A DNA stretch of 64,000 nt from Kondoa subrosea (lineage: Eukaryota): contig BCIN01000001.1 in assembly GCA_039545335.1 (NCBI GenBank), positions 674,208-738,207 of the forward strand. The letters run 5' to 3'. The notes beneath the pieces are model-generated. The model was not told where the DNA came from. It was given only the letters and a program-made list of their open reading frames with translations, and did not search any database. The translations under genes were made by a program, and so were the position numbers. Shown here one piece after another: positions 1 to 62,761 of this stretch (position 1 is the first letter of the stretch; each line of letters opens with the position of its first letter).

Positions 1-23
1 AGCAAAAAGAATGGGCTCGATTG

Positions 24-176
24 TGCGTCAAAGGGGATTCGAACCCCTGCCACCGAAGTGACTGCGAACCTCAGACGAGGAAGTTTCATCAACTTGAATG
101 CAGCGCTGATCGAATTTTGAGCTTTTTTCATGCTGAGGAGTGAAGAAAGTACCCTTAACCGCTCGGCCATCGACGC
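24..176 (-). tRNA. tRNA-Leu(CAA) with two introns (47-nt GT-AG intron in the D-stem; 25-nt canonical 37/38 intron)
   Basis: Minus strand: GCGTCGA-TG-GCC-GAGCGGTTAA-GG|intron 152-106|C-G-CTGCA-TT-CAA-G|intron 92-68|T-CGCAG-T-CACTTCGGTG-GC-AGGGG-TTCGAAT-CCCCT-TTGACGC-A. The acceptor stem pairs 7/7 (one G-U), the T-arm is perfect, the variable arm is long (Leu type), the mature length is 81 nt, and a T5 terminator lies at 4-8. There is an A31-C39 mismatch. Confidence 0.9.
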
Positions 177-2470: not shown

Positions 2471-5400
2471 TTAGGTTAATGATTGCAGGTTGACTTCCGA
2501 TGACCTAGGTGAGTCAGGTAGCGGCTGCGATACCGCTGCGCCGAACATTGACTTGAGACTTTGTTCGTTCTTCAGGTTCCGAATGCGTTCAGCTTCTTCA
2601 GCACCGCCTGCGTATGCTTTTGAGCTCAATGAACATGTAATCGTGAGTAAGCACATACCTGTCTTCTTTAGCTTCTTATGTTCAACGAAGCCACCCAGCT
2701 CTGCCGCAAACTCATTGTTCGCTTTAGATTCCGACACTTGTCGGTCGCGAGCTTTCTCCGCTAATGCGATAGCTTTCATCCGTTTCTGTGGATCGACTGC
2801 TAAGCTCTTGACTTCTCCCATGACGGTGCTTAATCCACCATGACTGGAATCAGGATCCGGCGGAATATATTCTCGTAGGCCGAGACGTTTTGGACCGCTT
2901 CCGCCTAAAGAGACAGATTGCTTTTTGACCAGCTCATCGATATTCTCAAACATATTTGCCATCTCTTTGTGATCTTCAGCAAGTTCTTCAAGCAATTCTT
3001 CTTGGTGTTTAAGGAAATGTTGTTCTTCCACAATCTGCCTTAGTTCTTCTGACCAAGTCTTCTTCCACGTAGGTTTGACCGTGTTGACATACGATTGAAC
3101 TTTCTCCAAATCATTTCGAGTGATTTCAATACTCTTCTTGATTTCGGCCAATTTGCTTGCCGAAGGTCGAACACGACGAACAGTCACATCGTCTCTCATT
3201 CCTTCCACAGCATCCATGAGACTTTCTATAGCAGTAAGCAAATCTTGAGATTGACCATCCAATTTGCCTTTGCCTGCATCGATGAAAGCACGAGAGCCAG
3301 AGACTTTGGTAGCTGCGAGCGTCCGTACTCGTTCACATTGGCTCCGAAGTGTAGAGAGAACAGTCTTGTGTTCGTTGCCATAATCCGAATAGACCTGCCG
3401 AAGTACAGCAAGATCTCGCCGTAGACTTTGTACTTCTTCATAATAGTTCTTAAAGCTGGTTTTGGAAGGTGTGAGAGCTGAAGTAGAGGAAGATGGCGCA
3501 GAAATGTTGGCAACTTGGGCGGGAGGAGATTTGTGTTGTTGAGAGCCTAATGGAGGGGACGTCATATTGGCGAAAGGAGTTCCGAAAGCAACAGGAGCTG
3601 GTATGGAAGCTCTTCGTATAGATTGAGCGAAAGATGACTTGAGATCTTTGATGTCTTGCGAGACATTGAGGAAACCGGCGTTAATTTGCTGCTTGACTTG
3701 ATCAAAGACTGACAAACGGTATTCAGCCAAATTCAGAGTGCGAAGAGTTGAAAAAGTCACCTTCAACATTCAAACACAGTAATATACCTTCTTTGATCTC
3801 ATCCATATCTTCCAACTCGTACGATATACCGGTGGTAGGATCACGGATATAAATAGCAGGGAAATCTTCCAGATGCGAATGACTCCCAAACTTGTCGGTA
3901 AAGAGTACTCTGAGCCCAGCTTCGTCCACATCCGGTTCCAAAGTAACTTTCTTCGTCCGATTACCCAATTGCAGGAAGATGGAAATCGGTTTCTTTTCCC
4001 TTTCCTCTTCTGCTTCTTCTTGAGCCGATCGCTTTTGAATCAGATCATCCACTATAGCAACAGCTCCTTCTTGACCGTCTTCATCTCCTCCTGCGGCTCT
4101 CTCTTTGCCTTTATCGAGATCAGGTAAAACTTGAGTGTCCAATCCTTCCAAATGCCTATTCCAACTCTCGCTCAAACTCTTCTTCTCCTCTAATGGAGGT
4201 TCAGGAACGGTACTTAATCTTCTCCCTCCTCCAGAAGTACTACTCGCCAACATTCTAGGTACTGGCGGAGGTGGAACAGGTGGTGCACGAGGACTTCTTC
4301 CTCTTCCAGGACTATCACGATCATCTCTCAAAGAGAAGATCTTGCTTCCTGCAGGTGAAGCAGTAGCAGAATTAGAAGAAGAAGATGAAGCGCCCATTTT
4401 ATCAAAAGTGTATTTGGAAAACCTTTTGCTTGCTCTTCGCATAAGGTTATCAGAGTTCTTGAGGTTATCAAACGCTTTCTCAGGGACAGCAGAAGGTAAG
4501 AGATTGTTGGGCATTGAAGGAGTACCATCGAATTTCAAGGTAGGTAAAGCTGGAACAGGGTAAGTGGAAGCTGACGGTGTTGTTGGTCGAGAATGTTGCG
4601 ACTCGGGTAAAGAAGGTCTACGACTCATGTTTGGTCCTGATGGTAAAGGCGGAGGTTTCTCTCTCGCATAAACACCAGAATGAGCTGCATCTGGCGTAGG
4701 TGGTCGACCGGAAGAAGGACCATGAGCTCGTCTGAGGTCTTGTGATGAAGTTGGTGATGGTAAGGAGCGAGTTGAGGAGACAGAAGGCTGACGATTATGT
4801 ACGACAGCTGTATTGCTGTTCTGAGATTGAGTGGACGACCGTTGCGAAGAAGGTATTGGAGGTCGATTTGGTACACCAGGATTATTTGCTGTGGTAGGCG
4901 AAGGTGTTCCAGAGCGCATTTGACTGAGCGAAGGAGGAGGTGCATTCTGCCTGCGATCAAGTATTTCCTTGTACAGGGCTTGTTTAGCCTTAAGACCTTG
5001 CAGTAGATTCACTATGATAGTCTTGATTGCAGGCAAAAATTGTTGTAGAGTAGCTTCAGATGCAGATTCTGCTGAAAGACAGTTCTCCAGACAGCCTCGC
5101 AGATCATCCGGAACAGTAAGCAGATCTCTGTATCGACTTGTCAGTACAAGATATATAGCTCAAGTCAACAAGCTGACTCCATAGAGATATTCTCCCTCGC
5201 AAATGTCGCACAAGCAGCATTAAAGTCGTTACCCAATTTGACATAAATATCTGAGATTTGATCATCAGTTGTGCGACCTTGACTCCAAGCGGTCAGTCCT
5301 TCCAGTAGATTCTTTGTAGATACCAATAGCCGAGTCACGACCTTACGTGCAAGATCAGTACCGAGTATTCGCATGACGCTTGAAACTTACAGTATCAATT

Positions 5401-5980: not shown

Positions 5981-8900
5981 ATGGACTTGTACGATGAGTT
6001 CGGAAACTACCTAGGTGGAGATGATTCAGAAGACTCTGGGGGAGAAGATGCGCATGAGCAGACAAATGGTTATGCTGCCGCTCCAGCTTCGACAGCCGCA
6101 CCTCTAGATGGCTATGATGATCAGGATACGACTATGGGAGATGCTCAAGCGGATCAAGGACCTATTTCAAATGCCGTGATATTGCATGAAGATAAACGAT
6201 ATTACCCTCATGCTTCTGAAGTGTATGGGGATGATGTAGAAGCGCTTGTTCAAGAAGAAGATATGCAACCTCTAACAGAACCTATCATTGCACCTGTCAA
6301 AAAGCTTTCGTTCAGGGTAGTTGAGAACGGCAAGAAGGAAGTTAAGCAGAGATTCGATAACCAATTCTTGCTCGATCTATCCTCGCACCCGGAAAGTGTA
6401 AGGAATGTTGCTGTAGTCGGACATCTGCACCATGGGAAAACAGCTTTGATGGATATGTTGGTCTATGAAACACATCAAATGGATTGGATGCCAGAAAAGC
6501 AGGTGAGGAGAAGTCACGATCATAATCGATTTGTAGTTCTGATGGTTAGATGTGCTTTGCTCACAGCTTCGATACACCGACTCACACATCTTAGCGCAAC
6601 AACGAGGCATTTCACTCAAAGCTTCACCTATGAGTTTCGTACTGCAAAATACAAAAGGCAAATCTTTCCTCCTCAACATGATCGACACACCAGGGCATGT
6701 CAACTTCCAGGTCAGCTATCTCTTTGAGTCGGAGTCGGAAGGTCAAGCTAATGTAGAATGAGCAGGACGAAGTAGCAAGTGCACTTCGATTAGCTGATGG
6801 AGCTGTTCTGGTAGTAGATGCAGTGGAAGGCGTTCGTTGAGCTTGACTCCTTCGGTTTGTGGCTGATTGTGCCTCGATTGATTGAACAGGTACTAGCCAA
6901 TACAGAATACATCATCCGCCATATCCTCGCTCAACACCTGCCGATAACGCTCGTATTGAACAAAGTCGATCGCTTGATCCTTGAACTCCGACTACCTCCC
7001 GGCGATGCATACTATAAGCTGAAACAAACAATAGAAGAAGTGAATACTGTTATAAGCGGAATTGATCCAGATCCAAAGTTACGAGTCTCACCCGAGTTAG
7101 GCAACGTCACTTTCGCCAGTACTTCTATGGGATGGGCTTTCACTTTGAAAAGTTTCGCTAAAATGTATCAAGATACTTACGGTGAGGAAAGCGGATCCGG
7201 GCTATGAGATTTGTTCTCATCCGTTGGGTCACATCTTCTTACAGGTCCCGTTGATCTTGATGGCTTTGCTCTACGATTATGGGGCAACATTTATTTCAAT
7301 CAGACTACCCGGAAATTCAGCAAGCATGAATCTATCGATGGTGATTCGAAACGGGGTTTCCTGCATTTCATCCTGGAGCCTCTATACAAGCTCTATGCAG
7401 CTGTAAGTCGCACTTACCGGTCTTGAGATATATCTGATCACTGATTTCTTTGACATGCAGGTTCTCAGCCAAGACAGTGCAACTCTAAAAAAGACTTTGC
7501 ACTCGCTTGGCATCTTCCTGAAACCAGCAATGTACAAAATGGATGTCCGACCACTTTTGAAACTAGTTCTCAGTCAATTTTTCGGTCCTCCGGCTGGATT
7601 AGTGGATATGATCACTCAACATGTTCCAAATCCAGTAGAAGCAGCTCCTCACAAGATCGCTACTACTTACTTTGGACCTCTTACTTCCAACGTTGCGAAA
7701 GCCATGATTACTTGCGATCCGGAAGGACCACTCATGATTCAAGTGACGAAACTTTTCCCTTCAGAAGATGCGCAGGAATTCCATGCTTTTGGACGAGTCA
7801 TGTCTGGAACTGTCAAATCGGGTCAGAAAGTAAAAGTACTTGGTGAAGGCTTCAGTATGGAAGATGAGGAAGACATGGTCATTGCTACAGTTGAGAAAGT
7901 ATGGATCAACGAGTCAAGGTTCGTGAGACTTATATCCTTCAGCATGCGCTGATGTCGATCATGCATCACGAACAGATATCTTATCGAAACAGATGGTATA
8001 CCAGCAGGCAATTTTGTGACACTTTCAGGTGTAGACAACTCGATTACCAAAAGCGCCACCATTGTGGATGTTTCTATTCAAGAGGACTTGCACATCTTCA
8101 ATCCTATCAAACATATCTCTCAATCCGTTCTCAAGATCGCAGTCGAACCTGTCAACCCATCAGAATTACCTAAAATGCTGGACGGTCTAAGAAAGATTAA
8201 CAAGACCTACCCATTAGTCGAAACTCGAGTAGAAGAAAGTGGCGAGCACGTCATTATTGGTACTGGAGAACTTTACCTTGATTGCGTGATGCATGATCTG
8301 AGAAGAATGTTTGCCGAAATCGAAATCAAAGTTTCGGATCCGGTCGTCAGGTTTTGTGAGACTGTTGTGGAAACGAGTGCATTGAAATGCTACGCTGAAA
8401 CACCGAACAAGAAGTCAGTGCCAGGTGTCTTTCGCTGTTTATATAGCTTATCATCTTCTACTTTGACAGAAACAAGATCACCATGATTGCTGAACCGCTC
8501 GAAAAGGGAATAGCAGACGATATCGAAAAGGGAAGAGTATCGATGAAGATGTCTACCAAGCAAATAGGCAAGCATTTCGAAGAACGCTTCCAATGGGATT
8601 TACTCGCTTCTCGGTCGATATGGGCTTTCGGTCCGGAAGAACAAGGGACAAACATCCTTATGGACGATACTTTACCTTCAGAAGTTGACAAGAAGTTGCT
8701 TGGTTCAGTGAAAGATTTCGTCAAGCAAGGTTTCCAATGGGCGACTCGTGAAGGACCACTTTGCGATGAACGTGAGTCATTCATCTCCGAGTGTATGCTC
8801 AAGTTTTAAGAAAAGTTATCTAGCGATACGAAACGTCAAGTTCCGCATTCTCGATTCCGTCTTAGCACCTGAAGCGATTTTCCGAGGAGGAGGACAAATC

Positions 8901-19057: not shown

Positions 19058-22000
19058 CTATTGCATAGGCTGTTGCTGCTGTGGAAGCGCACTTAGCGTG
19101 AACAGACTGTTCTGTTGATACTGTCCAGGTTCAGATGGGAAAGCTTGAGCCTGAACCTGCTGCTGCTGCTGATTTTGCATTTGTGCTTGAGTGCTCTGAA
19201 TTTGATGAGCTTGCAAGAGTTGATTTTGCAAATTCTGCTGTTGCTGTTGCTGCATTTGTTCTTGTTGCGAAACGACTGGAGTTTGCATTAGTGCTTGTTG
19301 ATCCTGTTGCATGAAATTCTGCTGTAAAGCGAAATTAACTTGCGCTTCCTGTTGTTTAGCTTGCAGAGCTTCTTGTTGCAATTGGAACTGATTCTGGGCT
19401 TGTTGCATAAGTTGAAGTTGTCTTTGTTCATTGACTAGCCGCTGTTCATTTGCTTGTTGCAGCTGAATTTGCTCGTTGTGCAAGCGCTGAGCATTTTGCA
19501 AGTGTTCATCTTGTGGTGTACTAGACTCTGAGCGTGCTAGTTCAGTTGCTCGACGTCGTAGCTCATTGACGTAGGCCACATCTTGTGAGGTACTGAAATC
19601 AAGACGTTCGTGCAAGAATCGGTAGACTGTTTCTAGAGCTTGTTCCAGGGCACTGACGGAGACGCCCTCTTGTGTCTGATTGGACATGCTGTAAGCTGGA
19701 GTGGAAGGGACAGGCGCGGGAGGAGGTGGCATGGAAGAGGTCGCAGGTAGAGAGGAGTAGATCGAGGCACTTTGGGAATCTGAACCATACATATCCATCT
19801 CTGGCGGTTGAGGTGTCTTCGCGAAACGCTCTATTGGTTGATTGAAGCTCGCAGCAAAAGCAGACGCGAAAGGAGGATTGGACTCTTCGTAAAGCGCAAT
19901 GGATGGACTAGCCATCGACAAGCCAGATAGACCGGAAAAGAAAAGGGTGTTGGGAGTGTTCGGCTCAATCCCGAGTGATGGACTGTAGATGGACGAAGCT
20001 CGTGAGTGAGAGCGACTGGGAGTGGAGTAGATGCTATCAGCGTGGTCAGTGTCGAAAGGAGAGGGTTGTTGAGCGCTTGAAACGGAGCTGGTGGAATTTG
20101 CGCGGAATCGATGTGTTGTGCCGAAAGAAGGACCGCTCGGTGGTCGACTTTGTTCAAAGCCGCTATCCAGCACACTGTCGGTCGACAAAGCTGGACTGGG
20201 AAGAGGTAAGGGTAAGAGTTCACTTGGTGGAGCTAGAGATGCTGCAGAATAAGAAGCTGCAGAGTAAGGCGCAATCCAGCCATGCTTGATTCCGGCTCGA
20301 GCTTTGAATTTTGTGAGCCATGAATCACTGCACTTGAACTGGTCAGTTGTGAGACCGCAGGAAACAGCTACTCTTTTGGCCTCTTTGCGTAGACTCGGAT
20401 CATCGATAGGTTTACCTCCAATGTTGAGGTTGCGAGCCCACGCGATCAATGGTGCTTCGATTTGAGGAAAGCGAGAACTAGCTCGTTGAGGTTTGGGTCG
20501 AGGTCCTTTAACAACGGGTGCTGCAGGTTGAGGAAGAGAAAGTGCTAGAGGTGGTGGTGAAGGACGACGCAGAGCGGGCAAGAGAGGTGTGGGAAGCAGA
20601 GCAAAAGCGTTTGGCACTTCCTCGCCTGGTTCGGGTATGGCGAGCCATTTTTCTCTGTCTTTTAGAGTTTTGGAAATAGTCGTTCGCTCCACTCCGCTGC
20701 ACAATCTGTTAATTAAGAAATAGGCTGCTGACAAAACCGCTCACAAAAGAGCACCAACGTGTTCTTGATTTTCGTTAGGATTGTCTCGAGTGTATTCACA
20801 AATCCGTTTTCGATCCAGTTGACTCAGCTTTGCGCCTCTTCTAATACTCGCGGGATTCGAAGGGGAGGTAGTGTGAGATTGAGAAGGACTAGTCCGGCTT
20901 CGTGAGCTTTTAAGCAGAGACCCCACAGCCGAACCGATGGAAGATCGCAAAGTGTGATGACGAGACTGCTGACCCGACACCGGGGCAGGAATAGTTGCTA
21001 TCGAAGCTACTGGACTTGATGAAGCTGAAGGCATTGGCGAATGAAAGTGAGCAGGAAAAGCTGCTGTGATTGGTGAAATTGAGGTTTCGCTTGAGAAAGC
21101 ACTTGTTGCGACAGCAGATGTTGGAGGAGATTCGATCCACGAAGAAGGGCTGGAAGGAGTGGATACACCTGATTTATTGCGCAGACTATTTGAAGATCGT
21201 GATTTGTTTAAGCCAGATCTGGTCGGATATTTCTGCGTATTTACCGAAATACTGGAAACGGAAGAGTGCGGCATAGATGGAGATGATTGAGCACTTCTGA
21301 TCTGAGGTATGGTCGAGCCGCCGTTTTGCCCACCAGCGGGAAAAGAGGATGTGTAATCTTCAGCGAAATGTAACAGCTGATTTTGACTCTGCGACCTGGA
21401 CTCTGCTCGAAGATGAGCTGAAGTGGAAGCAAAGGAGCTGGCGGAGCCAGTTGAAGTTGTATTGCTTGACTGCCCTGAATCGGAGCGATTTTCATCCAGC
21501 AACCCCCGATCACCAGAGAACCGTATACCAGAGAAGGTTGTAGGACCTTGATGCATAGATGTGTTAATAGGATGTTGCTCAGACCAGTTTGGGCGAGTTT
21601 TGACCTGAGGCAGATTGACATATAGGGAACTGGTCTGAACAGGATAAAGAGAAGGGCGATTCTATCAGTCACTACATAAGACGCTAGGATAGACTCTGAA
21701 GAGTGACTTTTAACCTACCTGTTCTAGCTTTGGACGTCCCTTGCGACTGCCGATGCCCTTGGCTCGATTTGCTTCAACCTGTTGAGGGATATTATGCGCT
21801 GCTAGAATATCCTCTAAGCGCTCCATGCTTGCTGAAGGATAACTGGTCTGTTGCAGAGGTTGCATAGTCTGATCTGAGAAAATGCTCGAAGATTGCTGAG
21901 ATCCGCCAGACCCGCTGGCCATAGGTGTGTTCAGACCGGCAGAAGGCAAAGAAAACTGATTCAATGTCTGCGTGCTGCTATCGTCCATTTGAGAGGCATC

Positions 22001-47190: not shown

Positions 47191-47817
47191 TCACTGTTGA
47201 GATATGACCTGCATGCCCTCAGCTGGTGGTTGGTGCATAGCCTGTTGCTGCCCACTTTGCAATTGCGGCAATTCGACCACTGCACTTTGACTTTCCGCTG
47301 CTACTTCTTGTTGTTGCAGTTGCGGTGCATTGGAGGATGGTAATGCTGGAGCATCAAGACCTCTTTCACTAGCTAATCGTTCATAGAGAATACTGTACCA
47401 ATGCACAATCAGCTTTCGACACATCCAATTGAGAAGTGAGGGAACGGACGATCGTTCTAAACGTAATCGTTGAATGTTCTTCTTGGCTTGTAAGATCTTG
47501 ACTAAGATCTTCAAATTATCCTGCGCGTTCACAAGCGTTCATTAACACATTCGACAATAGTGGAGAGAAGGGAGTTGACGCACATCTTCCAGAGTTGCGG
47601 TCTTCTCTTTTAATGCATGATATTTAGCAGTATACCTAGCCTCGTCTTCATGCCTTCTTTCAGCTTGACAATCTTGGGAATCTCAGTGGATGAATGGACG
47701 AACCTGTTTGTGATGCTATGGGAGGTCCTTGGGCTTTCGCCGCTGCTTTGCTGTAGCTTATAATGAGCCTTTATTCTACAGATGGCAGAGCAGTACAGCT
47801 CACGTCGGCGGCGCCAT
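47191..47817 (-). CDS. Small coiled-coil protein resembling INO80E/TFPT-type INO80 subunits
   Basis: ATG at 47817 followed by a GTGAG intron; KYHALKEK...AKKNIQRLRLERS-ILYERL after splicing. Confidence 0.55.
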
Positions 47818-47872
47818 GGTGTTTCGTGAAAGAAATCTATATTTTCATCTTTCTCTCTTTCTCTCTTCAACC

Positions 47873-48960
47873 ATGTCTAAATCTACAAACAGTACCATGA
47901 TGAAGAAGAAAGAGAAGAGGAAATCTGTTCGAATCAACTCACAACCAGAAGTAGAACCTACGATTGGGAAATCTTTGGATGAAGAATTGGCAAGTTTGAA
48001 AAGTAAAAAAGAAACTGTTCTTTTACCTGAGAAGTCACCTTTGAAACCATCTTTGAAATCATCCGCATCCACGTCTACGAGTAAGAGTAAAGCCAAAGGG
48101 GATAGAGGGGCAGAGGTTGAGGAGGTTGAAGATATTTTAGCTGGATTTGACGATGATGAAGCAAGTGATGAGGGTGAAGACAGTTCAGAAGGTGAAGAAT
48201 CGGAAGAGCAGGAAGTTGAGATCAAGATGGATGATTTACCGCCCGTGAAAAGTTCAAATCCACCTTCTACATCAAAGAAAGCTGTTCGTCTTGTATCCCT
48301 CATTGGACATTCTCATTCAATACTCATGACCCTTTCACATGACAGGCTAAAACTGGAGTCATCTATCTAGGTCGACTACCAAAAGGTTTCGAAGAAGCAG
48401 GCTTGGAAAAATACTTATCTCAATTCGGTACAATCAATCGCTTGCGTTTATCTAGAAACAAGAAGAACGGCTCTTCCAAACATTTCTGTTTTGTTGAATT
48501 CACCCATCGTTCGGTCGCGGAAATTGTTGTGGAAACAATGAACAATTATTTATTGGCTGGTCATTTGTTGCAATGCGAATTATTGGATGAAAGTAGAGTG
48601 CATCCTAAAATGTGGGTTGGTGCTGGAAAGAAGTTTAGAGTGCAACCCAAAGGAAGAAAAGAGAGGATAAAGCATAACGAGGTCAGTACTCTCTTCGCTG
48701 CCTCGTCTATGTTGAGCTGAAAGATGATGTTAATCAAATAGGAAAAGACTGATGCTCAGAAAGAAACGATTGTCAAAAGATTGATTGAACGTGAATCGGC
48801 AAAAAGAAAGAAGCTCGACGATCTTGGGATAGAGTATGATTTCCCTGGTTACAAAGGTCAAGAGAAGCCAAAGGAACTTGAAGCCGTTGCTGCTCCTGAT
48901 CCTGAAGAACCGAAAGCCAAGAAACAGAAGAAGAAGGCTAGGAAGAGTGCACCGGTGTAA
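47873..48960 (+). CDS. NOP15: Nop15/NIFK nucleolar RRM protein
   Basis: GVIYLGRLPKGFEE, SQFG..RLRLSRNKKNGSSKHFCFVEF, VVETMNNYLL, LGIEYDFPG. Confidence 0.9.
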
Positions 48961-49074
48961 TTTTATGCATGCTTTGTCTGCTCTTTCTGTTTCGCTCAAA
49001 TCCATTGAGCTACTTCTATTCCTTCCTCTTCATATCTTCCCCTTCCTTTGTATCTTCCTCTTGACTGGAATACT

Positions 49075-49365
49075 TGTTATTTAGCGGTATCGATTCTTGT
49101 CCATTGTCCGAGTGCCTCTTCCGGTCTTGTCACTCTGTGGACCTTTGCATCAATGATCATCTTATATCCCTACGTGCTTCTGATGAACTTGTGGAATACG
49201 AATGCTGACGGATCGTGGATGATTATGCGCCCGATGAAACGAGATGAAAAGATGAAACGAGATTCTCGATTGGCTTCGCAGTCAGCTACAGCCGACAACT
49301 ACGGTACAAGAGTAACCCCTCGCCCCCCGATCACCGCGCCCTATCCGAGACGTTGGACTGTGACA
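49075..49365. mobile_element. Probable solo LTR (291 bp)
   Basis: Begins TGTTA and ends TGACA (TG...CA, imperfect terminal inverted repeat). Flanks AATACT (49069-49074) and AATGCT (49366-49371) match 5/6. Contains a TATA-like GATATAAG on the minus strand and short internal GATGAAACGAGAT repeats. Confidence 0.45.
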
Positions 49366-49370
49366 AATGC

Positions 49371-49396
49371 TTTTTTTTTTTTTTTTTTTTTTTTTT
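49371..49396. repeat. T26 homopolymer
   Basis: 26 consecutive T between the putative LTR and the first 71-bp repeat. Confidence 0.95.
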
Positions 49397-49406
49397 GGGG
49401 ATTTAT

Positions 49407-49477
49407 TTTGCTTGTAGGTAGTACAGAACTTGTATGCTAGCTTATTCATAGAACGACCATTGCAAACGAAATTCAGC
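49407..49477 (+). repeat. 71-bp direct repeat, copy 1
   Basis: TTTGCTTGTAGG...GAAATTCAGC, identical to 51299-51369. Confidence 0.95.
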
Positions 49478-51298
49478 TCAAAACCGCTCAAAAGGATTCT
49501 CACACATTGCCAACTCAATTTGGACTTGGCAAGTCTGGTGGTGTTGAACCTATTCTTCGCTACATCGAGCGTGCTATTGAGGATTCACTTACGAGTATCA
49601 AGCACTCAATTATGATCGAACTTGATCTGAAGAACGCCTTTAATCAAATTTGCCGCAAACACATGGCTGAAGCAGTGGCCAAGTATGCACCTGAATTACT
49701 TCCAATGGCGACATGGGCATACAATAATGAATCTGATCTGTTCTTCTGCTTGGAAGATGGGACTGTTGAAATTATCAAGTCACGTCAAGGTGTGCGTCAA
49801 GGTGATACACTTGGCAACCTGCTCTTCTCGATTGCATATCGACCAGTGTTGGAAGATCTTGTTCGAAGGCTCAATGAAGGAGAAACGAATCAGTTCAATC
49901 TTGCTCAAGTTTTGGCTTATCTCGATGATACGAAAGCCTTTGTAGACCGCTCACGTCTTGAGGAAGTCAAAGCTATCTTTGAAGATCACCGTCATCGAGG
50001 CATCATTCTCAACCTCAAACCTCACAAGACTCGTGAAAATGGTCTTTCTCCTCAAGCTGAGATTGAAATACTTGGTAGCTACATTGGACCTTATCCTGAA
50101 CGCTTTCTTCGCGAGAAAGTCATCGGTGAAGCTCTACACCTCTTCAAGCTAGATCAACTTGAAGCCCATCATGCTCTCCTTCTCCTTCGCCTTAGTCTTC
50201 AACACCGCCTGCGTTATCTTCTTCGCACTCTTCCACCTACCCCTGCAGTACTTGAAGTTTGGGCTGAAATGGACACGAACATCTTACGAGCTGTCGCCAA
50301 ATTGCGAGGTGAACAGATACGAATTCAACCGCATGATGCTCGACTCCTCTCCTTTCCGATCAGTTATGGTGGACTTGGCTTCTTGTCTCTTAAGGAAGGT
50401 GCTGAACATGGAAGAGCAGCAATGATTGAGAAGATGGATTACTTGATCAATGACTTTGCTCCAGATGTCAATTATTCAGAACCATCAGAATTCAAGAGTC
50501 AAAGAGAGCGATGTCATGAAATGCACAAAGAGAATCGGACCAAGCTCTTACCTCAACTCAGCTCATCTGAGCTCGTTCAATATGTCGACAACCACTCCTC
50601 AATCTCTTCACAGTGTCTTCATGCCATCCCAAACAACTCTTACAAAACGCTGTCGAAGAGAGAAATTGCAGTTGGTTTGACACACCGAACGCTCATACGA
50701 GGTCACAACGACGTCTGCAAGTACTGCTGCCGTCCAAATNTCATTGGACATGATGAAGTCTGTGCTCAACGNCAGAATATGCGAATCTTCCGCCANGAGA
50801 AGGCAAAGATTACGATCAAGTACCACGTCGAAACGATAGAGGGCACAACAGTCAAACCTGAACCTTCTATTCCTGGTCGAAGAGATCGAACTGATCTNCG
50901 CATTCGCATAGCTGGACCTGGCTCGTTCCGTCAAGAAGTTGGGGACTACGATATCAAGTTCACTTCTGTTCATTCGCAACGCTTTCCTCCTGCTCCAACC
51001 ACTCAAGATCCTGACCTCTTTGCTTCAACTGAAAAACGAATTTCACATTACCTGTCTGGAATTGAAGCGGAGAAGAATCGTCACTACTGCAGTCTCGTCA
51101 AGAATCCTTTCCACCCTATCATATTCACCTCATCTGGAACTCCTTCACCTAACTCAAAAGATGTCCTTGCTCATTGGCAAGATCTCATGGATCCGTATGT
51201 ATACAAGTCATTAATTCTCGATCTCTCTATCAATTTGTTACGCGCTCGGTCTCGTTGTTTTGTTCTCTGAAGTAAAAAGGGAAAGCTGAAGTAGACAA
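49478..51298 (+). mobile_element. 5'-truncated non-LTR retrotransposon, CRE clade (Cnl1/MoTeR/SLACS-like): RT + CCHC + restriction-like endonuclease
   Basis: Intronless ORF to 51270 with QFGLG, LDLKNAFN, GVRQGDTLG, AYLDD, ILGSYIG, GGLG, Cx2Cx7Hx3C, RH/xE, RTD...DIK...EAEKNRHY and FHPIIFTSSG. It begins inside the RT domain with no ATG. Four N calls lie within it. Confidence 0.9.
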
Positions 51299-51479: not shown

Positions 51480-51616
51480 ACTGTAATAGTCTAGTAGTTG
51501 TATGCAAAACCTTCTCGCTTCTTCGAATTCTGCTTATATCTGTGTCAATTTAGAGGATATGCCTTTCCCATTTGCGTGGCCTGGGCATGACCTGGGTTCA
51601 AGTCCCAGTTACAGTA
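51480..51616 (+). tRNA. tRNA-Gly(CCC)-like gene with two introns (54-nt GT-AG intron in the D-loop; 11-nt 37/38 intron); atypical, possibly degenerate
   Basis: ACTGTAA-TA-GTCT-AGTAGTT|51500-51553|A-GGAT-A-TGCCT-TT-CCC-A|51571-51581|T-GGGCA-TGAC-CTGGG-TTCAAGT-CCCAG-TTACAGT-A. Acceptor 7/7, perfect T-arm, 72-nt mature length, TTTT at 51624. It lacks the D-loop GG and has A1-U72. Confidence 0.75.
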
Positions 51617-51789
51617 TCTCTACTTTTGCTCGAGAGTTAAACGTCGAAGCCTTGCTATTTTTTTGATCAAAGTAATGTGGTATTCTTTCTCAGTACGGAT
51701 AATACTGCCCAGGACTGTGCATCTCGTTCCCCCCATACGCAGGGGGAACAGGTTGGAATACAGGCAAACTGCTCGAAATCAGCCAATAC

Positions 51790-60115: not shown

Positions 60116-62618
60116 TCACTGTACAGTGTCATCTACTTGCATGTCCGCTCCTACTTTGGCAGCTTCCATGACTTCTGTCCTCCGAACCAATTCGCTATCT
60201 ACCGGAAGACTCTCGCTTGGCTTGACTGCCTCGCCGTCATCCACTGTATCGACCTTTTCCGTTTGAGTTGCGTTAGTAGAGTCTTTCTTCTTGCCTTGAT
60301 ATGATATAGCTTTACGTTGCGGACCCCAGTTCTCTTGTGGATTCTCTTGGAAACGAACGATCTTGACATCTTTGAGCATAGCAGCATCCGATTTTGGATG
60401 ATTAGAGAAATCAGCTGTCAACCTGTTTGTGAAACGTGCTGTACGATCAACTTTCACACTGATTGTGCAAGCAAGCCCACAAACGTTGCTTCTTTGGCCA
60501 GCATCACACGAGCAGGTGAACCTTCCTTCACATTAGCCATTTTCACTGGTCTACCGTCTGCGATGTAACTGCGTATGATATCGTGCAAAACTGATCGAGG
60601 CGCATCAGTCTTGATACCTCCTGCTAGAGCATGAGTCGCTGAAGCTGAATAGCCGGCATTGAGAATAGCGTTACTGTTCGTTGCCGCTGTGTTTAGTCCT
60701 CGGCAAAAGAGAGCCGAAAAGAAGGACTAACACCATGACTTTTTGCGATGGTGCTTGAGAATGCAGGTTGCCCGCTACTTTCGATTGCGTGAAGTAGAAA
60801 GGAGCAGTCAATTCCTATGTGCCAAGACATTCGGGCATGAGCTCTTTTATCAAGCAACATGTGATTGATTGAACACACCGCTTGAGCAATAGCGCACATG
60901 CCTAATATCCTCGTTTGAGTCTTGTACATCGCATCACCACTTTTGACATGTTCAATCATTTTGCCAACGAAATCTCGATCATGCAAGGGACCACTGTAGA
61001 GCGGTCCTCCAAGATGAAAACTACTGCCACACTCTTCACATTTCTTATCCGCTGGCGGTCCAGAATTGGTATGGTAATTCAAGATGACTTGATCTTTCTT
61101 GGATGTCTTTTCGCTCATTCGACCGATCGGTTGCAAATGCGTATTTTGGCAGTAATGACAGATATAGACTGTTGAGGTATTTCTGAGAGTATTCTAATCA
61201 GTACGCAACATGACGTTGTAAAAGCAAAGGGGAACAAACGTCATGGCTTTTTTCACTTCAACCGGCGCTGTGTACACTCTGATGAACAGGCGAACATAGA
61301 AATCGATTGACAAGCAAAGTTGAGGTTTCTTCAGATCATTTCAGCTTGTACAGATCATATCTGATAAGGCTGCTTACGATGTGTCGGCCATAGCGAGCGG
61401 CTGAAGTCTGAATGGCATGCAGTACAAGCCGAAGAGCCTGTCAAAAGATTGTCAGCTAGAACTTCAAAGCAACAGCGACAGACATACTCCCTCATGCATG
61501 AATTCTGCCTTAAGAGGCGTCCCACCGTAATTCGAAAAGCTGTGCAATGGGATTGTTTGCAAAGCTTATAAAAGCATCGAAACAGCCCACGCACCATTTC
61601 TCTGGATAATTTGAGCCGGCCAGCACAGCCAAATCCGTACAAGTCACGCAAAGCAGTCCTGCACCGTCGATGAGCTGTGATAGCATTAATGAAATCATTC
61701 ACTAACCACCATCGTTGATACTCTGCACAGCAGCATCTATAAAAGGTGCAGCGGTTCCATAAGGATCCAAATCGACCACATCGAATCTCAAAGCATCCGT
61801 TCGATGATTGTACATGACTGTTGAACAATCTCCTTCGTTGACTCTGATTTTGGATGGTATTGTACCAGCAGGGAGTGGTTTAGATTCGGCTGATCCATCT
61901 GTCAGATCGTTCAAGGCTATATTCTCTTTCATGCTTGTTATTGCTGAGCGAGACAAATCGTTTGCAAGCACCCATCTGTAGGTGGAACGAAACCTTGAGC
62001 TCAAACATGGCACCATTTAATTATATACCTACCGTAGAAGTGGCAGCTCCAATGCGTACCGAATAGATCGCAGACCTGATGCAGCGAGAGCTTCGAAGCA
62101 TGTAAATTTGTAAGGATCCGGTCTTCTTGGTTGCGATGGCGCTTCCTCGACAGTCTGTGAGTCAGTGAGCATTAAATACACTAATGAAGTGAATCAAAGG
62201 ATCAGCTTACCTCAACTGCGGCATCTTCCGGTTGCTGCATCACTCCAACAGCTTGACCATCTTCACCCTTCCTTCGCTTGCCGCTTCTGCCAGTACCGTT
62301 CAGACCTTTTGCAGCCCTTCTCGCCTGTTTCTTTTCCCATGCATCTGCTTTCTCTTTGGCAAATATTTCAGACCAAGTCCTAATAGCGACAATTGATAGA
62401 TCTCTGTTGAATTCTTGCACAGGATTCAAGAAGACATTCTTAGGTCCAGTACTACTAGTACTTGTACTTCCAGCATCAGCAGCAGCATCAACAGGAGGAG
62501 CTTTGTTTGAGGTAGATGCAACTGGAACATAGATTTTTGCTGCTCCTTCGCTGTGAATGGCCATTTCGGTAGACATGCTTCTAAGTATTATACGCCTTAT
62601 GCTAGGCTTCAAGAGCAT
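60116..62618 (-). CDS. TRM1: tRNA (guanine26-N2)-dimethyltransferase
   Basis: VFLNPVQEFNRDLSI, FEALAASGLRSIRYALE, FDVVDLDPYGTAAPFIDAAVQ, FQENPQENWGP. Confidence 0.95.
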
Positions 62619-62761
62619 GCACTGCTAGCAGGATTATCTCGATCAAGGTATAATCCGACGTTTGATTCCAAGCAATAATAGTAGCAATGCCAGCTTGACC
62701 TGTCACGTCCAGCCCGATACACAGATTCGTTGTTTCTTCTGTTCTAGGGTAGTCTACAACA

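Follow-up and report, generated by a model that had tools for sequence, protein, structure and literature searches.

Two tRNA genes of a basidiomycete and related metagenomic loci carry putative spliceosomal introns in the D arm

Introduction

Near one end of a 64-kb stretch of fungal DNA (hereafter the window, by which we mean the whole of the stretch that was analyzed) lies a tRNA-Leu(CAA) gene that is interrupted in the anticodon loop and, in addition, in the D arm, where a 47-nt insert begins with GT and ends with AG. The locus raises the question of whether the D-arm insert is an intron of a working gene and, if so, which machinery takes it out of the transcript: the spliceosome, whose substrates it resembles, or the enzymes of tRNA splicing.

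Canonical eukaryotic tRNA introns lie between positions 37 and 38 and are removed by the tRNA-splicing endonuclease (TSEN) and tRNA ligase; non-canonical introns with a bulge-helix-bulge (BHB) motif occur in nucleomorph tRNA genes. Such BHB introns are also described for the tRNA genes of archaea and Cyanidioschyzon merolae (PMC3978253). For fungi, the account given in a 2023 review is that the heterotetrameric endonuclease removes introns at 37/38 only, with the folded tRNA body acting as the ruler (PMC10485636). One of its subunits, Sen54, is believed to make contact with the D arm (PMC3978253).

Spliceosomal introns of non-coding genes are likewise known from fungi. In Schizosaccharomyces pombe and other fungi, the U6 snRNA genes, which Pol III transcribes, carry mRNA-type introns (Tani and Ohshima 1989, 1991; Canzler 2016, cited in PMC5855946), in the basidiomycete yeast Rhodotorula hasegawae spliceosomal introns interrupt the genes for U1, U2 and U5 snRNA (Takahashi 1993, 1996, cited in PMC5855946), and they are also present in rRNA genes of ascomycetes (Bhattacharya 2000, cited in PMC5855946). 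Where a 2018 review of U6 enumerates the non-coding hosts of such introns, it names U6, U2, U5, U1 and rRNA genes, and tRNA genes are not among them (PMC5855946). The passages on introns in a 2025 paper (PMC12530127) and in the 2023 review (PMC10485636) treat tRNA introns and spliceosomal introns as separate worlds, the former assigned to the endonuclease and the latter to Pol II transcripts together with a few snRNA and rRNA genes.

A preliminary description of the tRNA-Leu gene had proposed that its D-arm insert is spliceosomal and had known of no described case. Our search of full-text literature outside subscription journals, which did not extend to wordings such as 'mRNA-like', came to the same result: no account of tRNA genes interrupted by spliceosomal introns turned up, and the only phrase match was to 'non-spliceosomal tRNA introns'.

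Results

A tRNA-Leu gene with two intervening sequences

The tRNA-Leu(CAA) gene occupies positions 24..176 on the minus strand, with the discriminator A at position 24, and consists of three exons separated by two intervening sequences. The Rfam tRNA model RF00005 aligns to 24–176 (−) over its full length (model positions 1–71) with a score of 31.8 bits, against a gathering score of 29. Exon 1 (153..176; 24 nt, tRNA positions 1–24), delineated by direct reading and by the Rfam alignment, comprises the 5′ strand of the acceptor stem, an A-box-like stretch, a D-loop of the Leu/Ser type, and G23 and G24. It is followed by the 47-nt GT-AG insert (106..152), which falls between G24 and C25 in the 3′ strand of the D-stem. 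The insert starts with GTACTT, terminates in GCTCAAAATTCGATCAG (the last four bases being TCAG), and carries GCTCAAA as a branch-like motif 12 nt before the 3′ end. Exon 2 (93..105; 13 nt) runs from C25 to G37 and contains the anticodon CAA. The second intervening sequence, identified by direct reading and by ARAGORN, is a canonical intron of 25 nt at 37/38 (68..92) whose ends are not GT-AG; the ARAGORN version of it is 27 nt long, with the register shifted by one. Exon 3 (24..67; 44 nt, positions 38–73) contributes a long variable arm, a T arm with the B box at 35–45, and the 3′ strand of the acceptor stem. The five segments sum to the length of the gene (24+47+13+25+44 = 153). In a scan for T-arm and acceptor pairs, the gene scored 7/7 in the acceptor stem and 5/5 in the T-stem. 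A run of five T residues at 4..8 (−), 16 nt past the discriminator, resembles a Pol III terminator.

No tRNA was called anywhere when the raw window was submitted to ARAGORN. Once 152–106 was removed in silico, the program reported a class-II tRNA with an anticodon-loop intron, so that the restoration of the tRNA by excision of the insert, as proposed in the preliminary description, is borne out, along with the division of the gene into a 25-nt 37/38 intron and a 47-nt D-arm insert. The caveat that the junction can slide by one G is also real, and a single register yields GT-AG. Two ARAGORN labels were rejected. For the raw Leu locus, the program offered a tRNA-Arg(TCT) with a 66-nt intron at 35/36, which splits the anticodon and leaves a Leu/Ser-type D-loop and a long variable arm that are unlike those of tRNA-Arg. 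The label SeC(TCA), assigned after removal of the insert, is wrong because the register is displaced by one base and position 26 is dropped; with G26 retained, the anticodon is CAA.

Two features of the Leu gene depart from the ideal: G is missing at +5 of the 5′ splice site, GTACTT, and A31 and C39 are mismatched at the base of the anticodon stem, so that this copy could be decaying.

A second interrupted gene, tRNA-Gly, in the same window

The preliminary description had suggested looking for further tRNA genes with GT-AG inserts in the D arm, and one such gene was found within the window. Scans for B-box-like sites and for pairs of T arm and acceptor stem pointed to a tRNA-Gly(CCC)-like gene at 51480..51616 (+), again with three exons and two intervening sequences. 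Whole-window Rfam analysis with default filters and ARAGORN both missed it, and RF00005 matches it with 36.0 bits when the filters are relaxed or the region is searched alone. The Rfam alignment places an insertion of 57 nt in the D-loop and one of 14 nt in the anticodon loop; the former is independent of any assumption about GT-AG ends.

The GT-AG insert of the Gly gene is 54 nt long (51500..51553, +) and is located in the D-loop at about position 20/21. It begins with GTATGC, in which the G at +5 is present, ends with TTAG, and has a branch-like motif, GCTTATA, 17 nt before the 3′ end. When 51500–51553 is removed, ARAGORN returns a tRNA-Gly(CCC) cloverleaf with a perfect 7-bp acceptor stem and a canonical 37/38 intron of 11 nt (51571..51581, +). 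The acceptor stem is unusual in being AT-rich and in having an A1-U72 pair. A terminator-like run of four T residues (51624..51627, +) lies 8 nt past the discriminator.

With relaxed filters, Rfam finds exactly two tRNA genes in the 64 kb, the Leu gene and the Gly gene, and both have a GT-AG insert in the D arm in addition to a canonical intron; the scan for T arms and acceptor stems is, for its part, blind to genes interrupted in the T-loop or the acceptor stem. Each of the two genes has a full cloverleaf, intact A and B boxes and a T-run terminator, the exceptions being the A31/C39 mismatch of the former and the A1-U72, AT-rich acceptor stem of the latter.

Open reading frames at 47714–51270 (+), with an RRM (48343–48717) and a reverse transcriptase domain (49441–51270), look like a non-LTR retroelement. 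They end ~210 nt upstream of the tRNA-Gly gene and share its orientation. In other organisms, some retroelements are known to target Pol III genes, and the retroelement-like neighbor may accordingly be a sign that tRNA-Gly is an active Pol III locus.

The inserts resemble mRNA introns of neighboring genes

The protein-coding genes of the window include those for Bud6/Aip3, thymidylate synthase, Snu114/EFTUD2, an XPB-like helicase, MoaC and Trm1. The best named relatives belong to the Agaricomycotina: Mycena and Calocera in the case of Bud6, at ~40% identity, and Tulasnella and Ceratobasidium in that of the N-terminus of EFTUD2, at 57%. Judged by these matches, the window DNA comes from a basidiomycete for which the collection searched contains no close sequenced relative. 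Trm1, the tRNA methyltransferase that forms m2,2G26, is encoded at 60119–62624 (−), and its target G26 is one base from the insertion site in tRNA-Leu; no link between the two is implied. A 560-aa open frame at 19058–20740 (−) with a Tc5 transposase DNA-binding domain is probably the remnant of a DNA transposon.

For comparison with the inserts, homologous proteins were aligned to the window with tblastn and introns were read from the gaps, which gave 11 mRNA introns with clear ends in Bud6 and EFTUD2; a twelfth intron, in Bud6 near 3787–3709, has an ambiguous 5′ end and was omitted from the set. The 11 introns are 49–64 nt long, and the D-arm inserts measure 47 nt (Leu) and 54 nt (Gly). All 11 end in AG, 10 contain the motif CTNAH 13–24 nt from the 3′ end, and 9 have G at +5. 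The motif of the Leu insert, GCTCAA, recurs in two of them and that of the Gly insert, GCTTAT, in one. Thus, a 51-nt intron of Bud6/Aip3 (2608..2658, −), defined by tblastn with homologs, has GCTCAAA 13 nt before its CAG end, and a 52-nt intron of Snu114/EFTUD2 (8772..8823, +) has the branch motif GCTCAAG. An initial ab initio list of intron candidates was too noisy and partly circular and was set aside except for its length peak at 45–59 nt, which is indicative only, the candidates having been picked by a motif-based score.

The likeness of the Leu insert to the introns of neighboring genes, as claimed at the outset, thus holds for length, branch motif and AG acceptor, and is weaker at the 5′ splice site, where G at +5 is missing. 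Among all 47-nt segments of the window, 0.37% begin with GT and end with AG. When a segment must also have a pyrimidine at −3 and CTNAH 8–25 nt before its end, the fraction drops to 0.03% (0.03–0.05% over both insert lengths), and these chance figures are overstated because the segments counted include real introns.

Within the 64-kb window, no further copy of either insert was found, and the Rfam intron families had no match there. At 44–58 nt, the inserts are too small for the catalytic core of a group I or group II intron, which requires a few hundred nucleotides or more. In their ends, in the exact restoration of the host upon removal, in the combination of a branch motif with a YAG end and in their length, both window inserts are like U2-type GT-AG introns.

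Interrupted tRNA genes in metagenomes

Metagenomes were scanned with a pattern consisting of a Leu/Ser D-loop, AAGG, GT, 28–58 free bases, AG, CG and a loose anticodon-loop frame. The scan returned 27 loci, where a rough estimate predicts ~20 by chance. Ten of the 27 are class-II tRNA genes (L003, L004, L013, L015, L017, L018, L021, L023, L024 and L027), two of which, L004 and L017, appear identical across the ~200 nt compared. The GT and AG of the D-arm inserts were imposed by the pattern, so that the counts cover GT-AG inserts only. Since both dinucleotides are forced in all 27 loci, the 17 non-tRNA loci serve as an internal control for the positions that are not forced. At these positions, the two groups differ: G at +5 is present in 10/10 tRNA loci and 3/17 non-tRNA loci, the motif CTRAY 6–30 nt from the end of the insert in 9/10 and 1/17, and a pyrimidine at −3 in 9/10 and 6/17. 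The identical pattern run against 596 Gb of prokaryotic genomes gave 12 matches, none of which had the layout of a Leu/Ser tRNA or the CTRAY motif; a loose T-loop-like match and G at +5 were each seen once.

ARAGORN called eight of the ten loci as Leu or Ser tRNA once the D insert alone was removed. Rfam supported five of the 12 loci submitted to it (the ten together with L006 and L010), at E values of up to 0.01.

The most heavily interrupted gene, L003, has five inserts of 52–58 nt, at 8/9, at 24/25, in the variable arm, in the 5′ strand of the T-stem and after position 60. Each of the five contains CTRAY 10–11 nt before a YAG end, and comparison by eye revealed no obvious mutual similarity beyond the splice signals. 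Their removal leaves a perfect tRNA-Leu cloverleaf with a canonical intron of 12–13 nt. L024, a tRNA-Leu(TAG) gene, has two inserts, one in the D arm and one in the variable arm, and their removal likewise yields a perfect cloverleaf in which a 24-nt canonical intron is retained. For six extra inserts in L003 and L024, GT and AG were not forced by the pattern.

The open reading frame adjoining the tRNA gene of L024 (L024:2–445, −) encodes a homolog of Sen54, the tRNA-splicing endonuclease subunit; it was the sole Pfam match among 38 flanking open reading frames of the metagenomic loci. The proximity of Sen54 to a doubly interrupted tRNA gene is probably a coincidence. The best named relatives of this frame, at ~60%, are from Leotiomycetes, which places the D-arm feature in an ascomycete as well.

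Conservation argues against decaying gene copies

If the interrupted genes were dead or dying copies hit by an insertion, for example by an introner-like element, the insert would never be removed and intact copies elsewhere would supply the tRNA. The weak 5′ splice site and the A31/C39 mismatch of the Leu gene and the atypical acceptor stem of the Gly gene fit such decay, and the survey covers a 64-kb window, so that intact paralogs may exist elsewhere in the genome. Another possible example is L013, where the 5′ half of a gene resembling tRNA-Leu(CAG) contains a well-formed GT-AG insert in the D arm (L013:614–669, −) and is followed by T7 runs, and where no recognizable T arm or 3′ half was found within the 600-nt flank; this locus represents either a dead copy or a gene that contains further, long inserts.

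The behavior of the genes as a group is, however, different. The insert is found in both tRNA genes detected in the window, the exons without it form full cloverleaves, and even the gene with five inserts still yields a perfect one. L018 and L027, which come from different samples, have near-identical tRNA exons and flanks that cannot be aligned. Their D-arm introns are equal in length and identical at 31/46 positions, to be compared with 26/47 to 34/52 for unrelated intron pairs, and the 5′ GT, the branch motif and the acceptor are kept. Thus, divergence between orthologs affects flanks and intron bodies, and the exons are retained. Between L015 and L021, there is one compensatory change in the anticodon stem, from C-G to T-A. 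Terminators, too, are kept: a run of at least four T residues is present at +2 to +29 past the discriminator in 10/10 resolved genes, against a background of 11–17% per 40 nt. Taken together, the constancy of the exons, the compensatory change and the T-runs are the behavior expected of functional tRNA genes with Pol III termination. Introner-like elements are typified by many near-identical copies in a genome, and the lack of another copy of either insert in the 64-kb window may also speak against an insertion of this type. We therefore consider decay unlikely for these loci.

The transcribing polymerase

The same terminators bear on the identity of the polymerase. The recruitment of the spliceosome is normally coupled to Pol II, and functional, spliceosome-spliced tRNA genes might therefore be transcribed by Pol II, alone or within longer transcripts, with the tRNA released after splicing. 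Some of the metagenomic inserts would be easier to accommodate in this way. Of the five in L003, that at 8/9 shifts the A box to ~52 nt downstream of the mature 5′ end, an awkward arrangement for A-box-directed initiation by Pol III, and that after position 60 disturbs the end of the B box; furthermore, the insert of L023 contains a run of five T residues. On the other hand, T-runs directly past the discriminator in every resolved gene, well above background, speak against Pol II, both window genes have intact A and B boxes, and the U6 RNA of S. pombe provides a precedent for a spliced Pol III transcript (PMC5855946). Transcription of these genes by Pol II thus appears quite improbable.

T-runs inside the inserts do not help to decide the matter. 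It had been pointed out that the Leu insert has no T-run that would stop Pol III, and its longest T-run is indeed three residues, which is statistically uninformative: runs of at least four T residues occur in 4/16 inserts, where 5.5 are expected, and a test for depletion was not significant. The idea that the inserts avoid Pol III terminators is therefore unsupported.

No sign of bulge-helix-bulge motifs

Removal of the D-arm inserts by proteins only, either by the tRNA-splicing endonuclease at a non-canonical site or by another endonuclease and a ligase, is very unlikely: non-canonical tRNA introns, those of the D arm included, exist in archaea and Cyanidioschyzon (PMC3978253), yet none of 16 inserts scored at all cut offsets had BHB-like pairing above that of shuffled controls (by a custom score run without a positive control), the window inserts are at 24/25 and about 20/21 instead of 37/38, the fungal heterotetrameric TSEN is reported, in the review's account, to act at 37/38 only (PMC10485636), and such a reaction would have no use for the conserved G at +5, for a CTRAY branch placed at a fixed distance or for the YAG end. 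The BHB test had been put forward with the original proposal, and its outcome agrees with spliceosomal removal.

Discussion

We consider it probable, from the sequence features described above, that both window genes are real and that each combines an ordinary 37/38 intron with a short spliceosomal intron of the U2 (GT-AG) type in the D arm, the latter being spliced from a Pol III pre-tRNA. The anatomy of the genes, the match to local mRNA introns, the similar loci of other fungi and the absence of BHB motifs were observed; from them, we infer the polymerase and every RNA-level step of the following pathway. Pol III would transcribe the gene, whose A and B boxes flank the insert on its upstream and downstream sides, respectively, and which is followed by the T-run. 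In the transcript, the D-arm insert is expected to block formation of the D-stem and the tRNA core, and the spliceosome would remove it first, presumably using the 5′ GU, the CUNAH branch 12–17 nt from the end and the YAG. The tRNA body could then fold, after which the tRNA-splicing endonuclease and the ligase would excise the 37/38 intron, and end processing would come last. An order in which the spliceosome acts first is the most likely one, since the fungal endonuclease is described as cutting only at 37/38 with the folded body as its ruler, and since Sen54 is thought to touch the D arm.

With somewhat less confidence, we favor the broader view that spliceosomal introns are a regular, conserved feature of nuclear tRNA genes in basidiomycetes and ascomycetes, with up to five per gene and at least six positions (8/9, the D-loop, 24/25, the variable arm, the T-stem and after position 60). 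The window genes represent the basidiomycetes in this view, and the Leotiomycetes-like locus L024 represents the ascomycetes.

The closest known parallel, U6, shares with the interrupted tRNA genes a short GT-AG intron, internal promoter elements of the A/B type for Pol III, a T-run terminator and a structured fungal non-coding RNA as the host. The cases differ in that the host here is a tRNA, an endonuclease-type intron occurs within the same transcript, and a gene can have up to five GT-AG inserts, as L003 does. The origin proposed for U6 introns, by reverse splicing into a neighbor at the active site, is not directly applicable to a tRNA because a tRNA is not part of the spliceosome. The introns of Rhodotorula hasegawae snRNA genes and ascomycete rRNA genes are also of the spliceosomal type and interrupt fungal non-coding RNAs, some of which are not Pol II transcripts; unlike these, the present host is a tRNA, which falls outside the hosts enumerated in the review (PMC5855946).

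Compared with the known classes of tRNA introns, the D-arm inserts share some features with each and differ in others. Like canonical 37/38 introns, of which both window genes possess one (25 nt and 11 nt), they need to be excised for a tRNA to form. They differ in their D-arm position, their GT-AG ends and branch motif, and the BHB motif that was not found, and they disrupt the very domain described as the ruler of TSEN (PMC10485636). The BHB introns of archaea, Cyanidioschyzon and nucleomorphs resemble them in that several can occur in one gene, at positions in the D arm, variable arm, T arm and acceptor, and in being missed by standard finders. In the signals, the relation is reversed: those introns have a BHB fold and no GT-AG or branch signals, and the inserts described here have GT-AG and branch signals and no detected BHB fold.

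The tRNA genes would widen the range of non-coding and Pol III genes known to host spliceosomal introns. As ARAGORN detected neither of the two window genes and Rfam with default filters only one, genes of this kind are probably absent from fungal annotations and hence from analyses of codon usage and tRNA supply. If the broader view is correct, current catalogs of fungal tRNA genes, in which introns are allowed only at 37/38, would be systematically incomplete, and the inserts would constitute a fourth kind of tRNA intron.

Should the signals of the inserts be a true guide to their splicing, a single pre-tRNA would depend on both splicing machineries, in a fixed order, and the Pol III transcripts handled by the spliceosome would extend well past U6. 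Introns would then have been gained, and long kept, in genes without a reading frame or coupling to Pol II, which bears on how introns spread. Our analysis thus suggests that the machinery of mRNA splicing also contributes to the making of tRNA and, should the feature prove as regular as the broader view proposes, that the fungal spliceosome would routinely handle Pol III pre-tRNAs ahead of the tRNA endonuclease.
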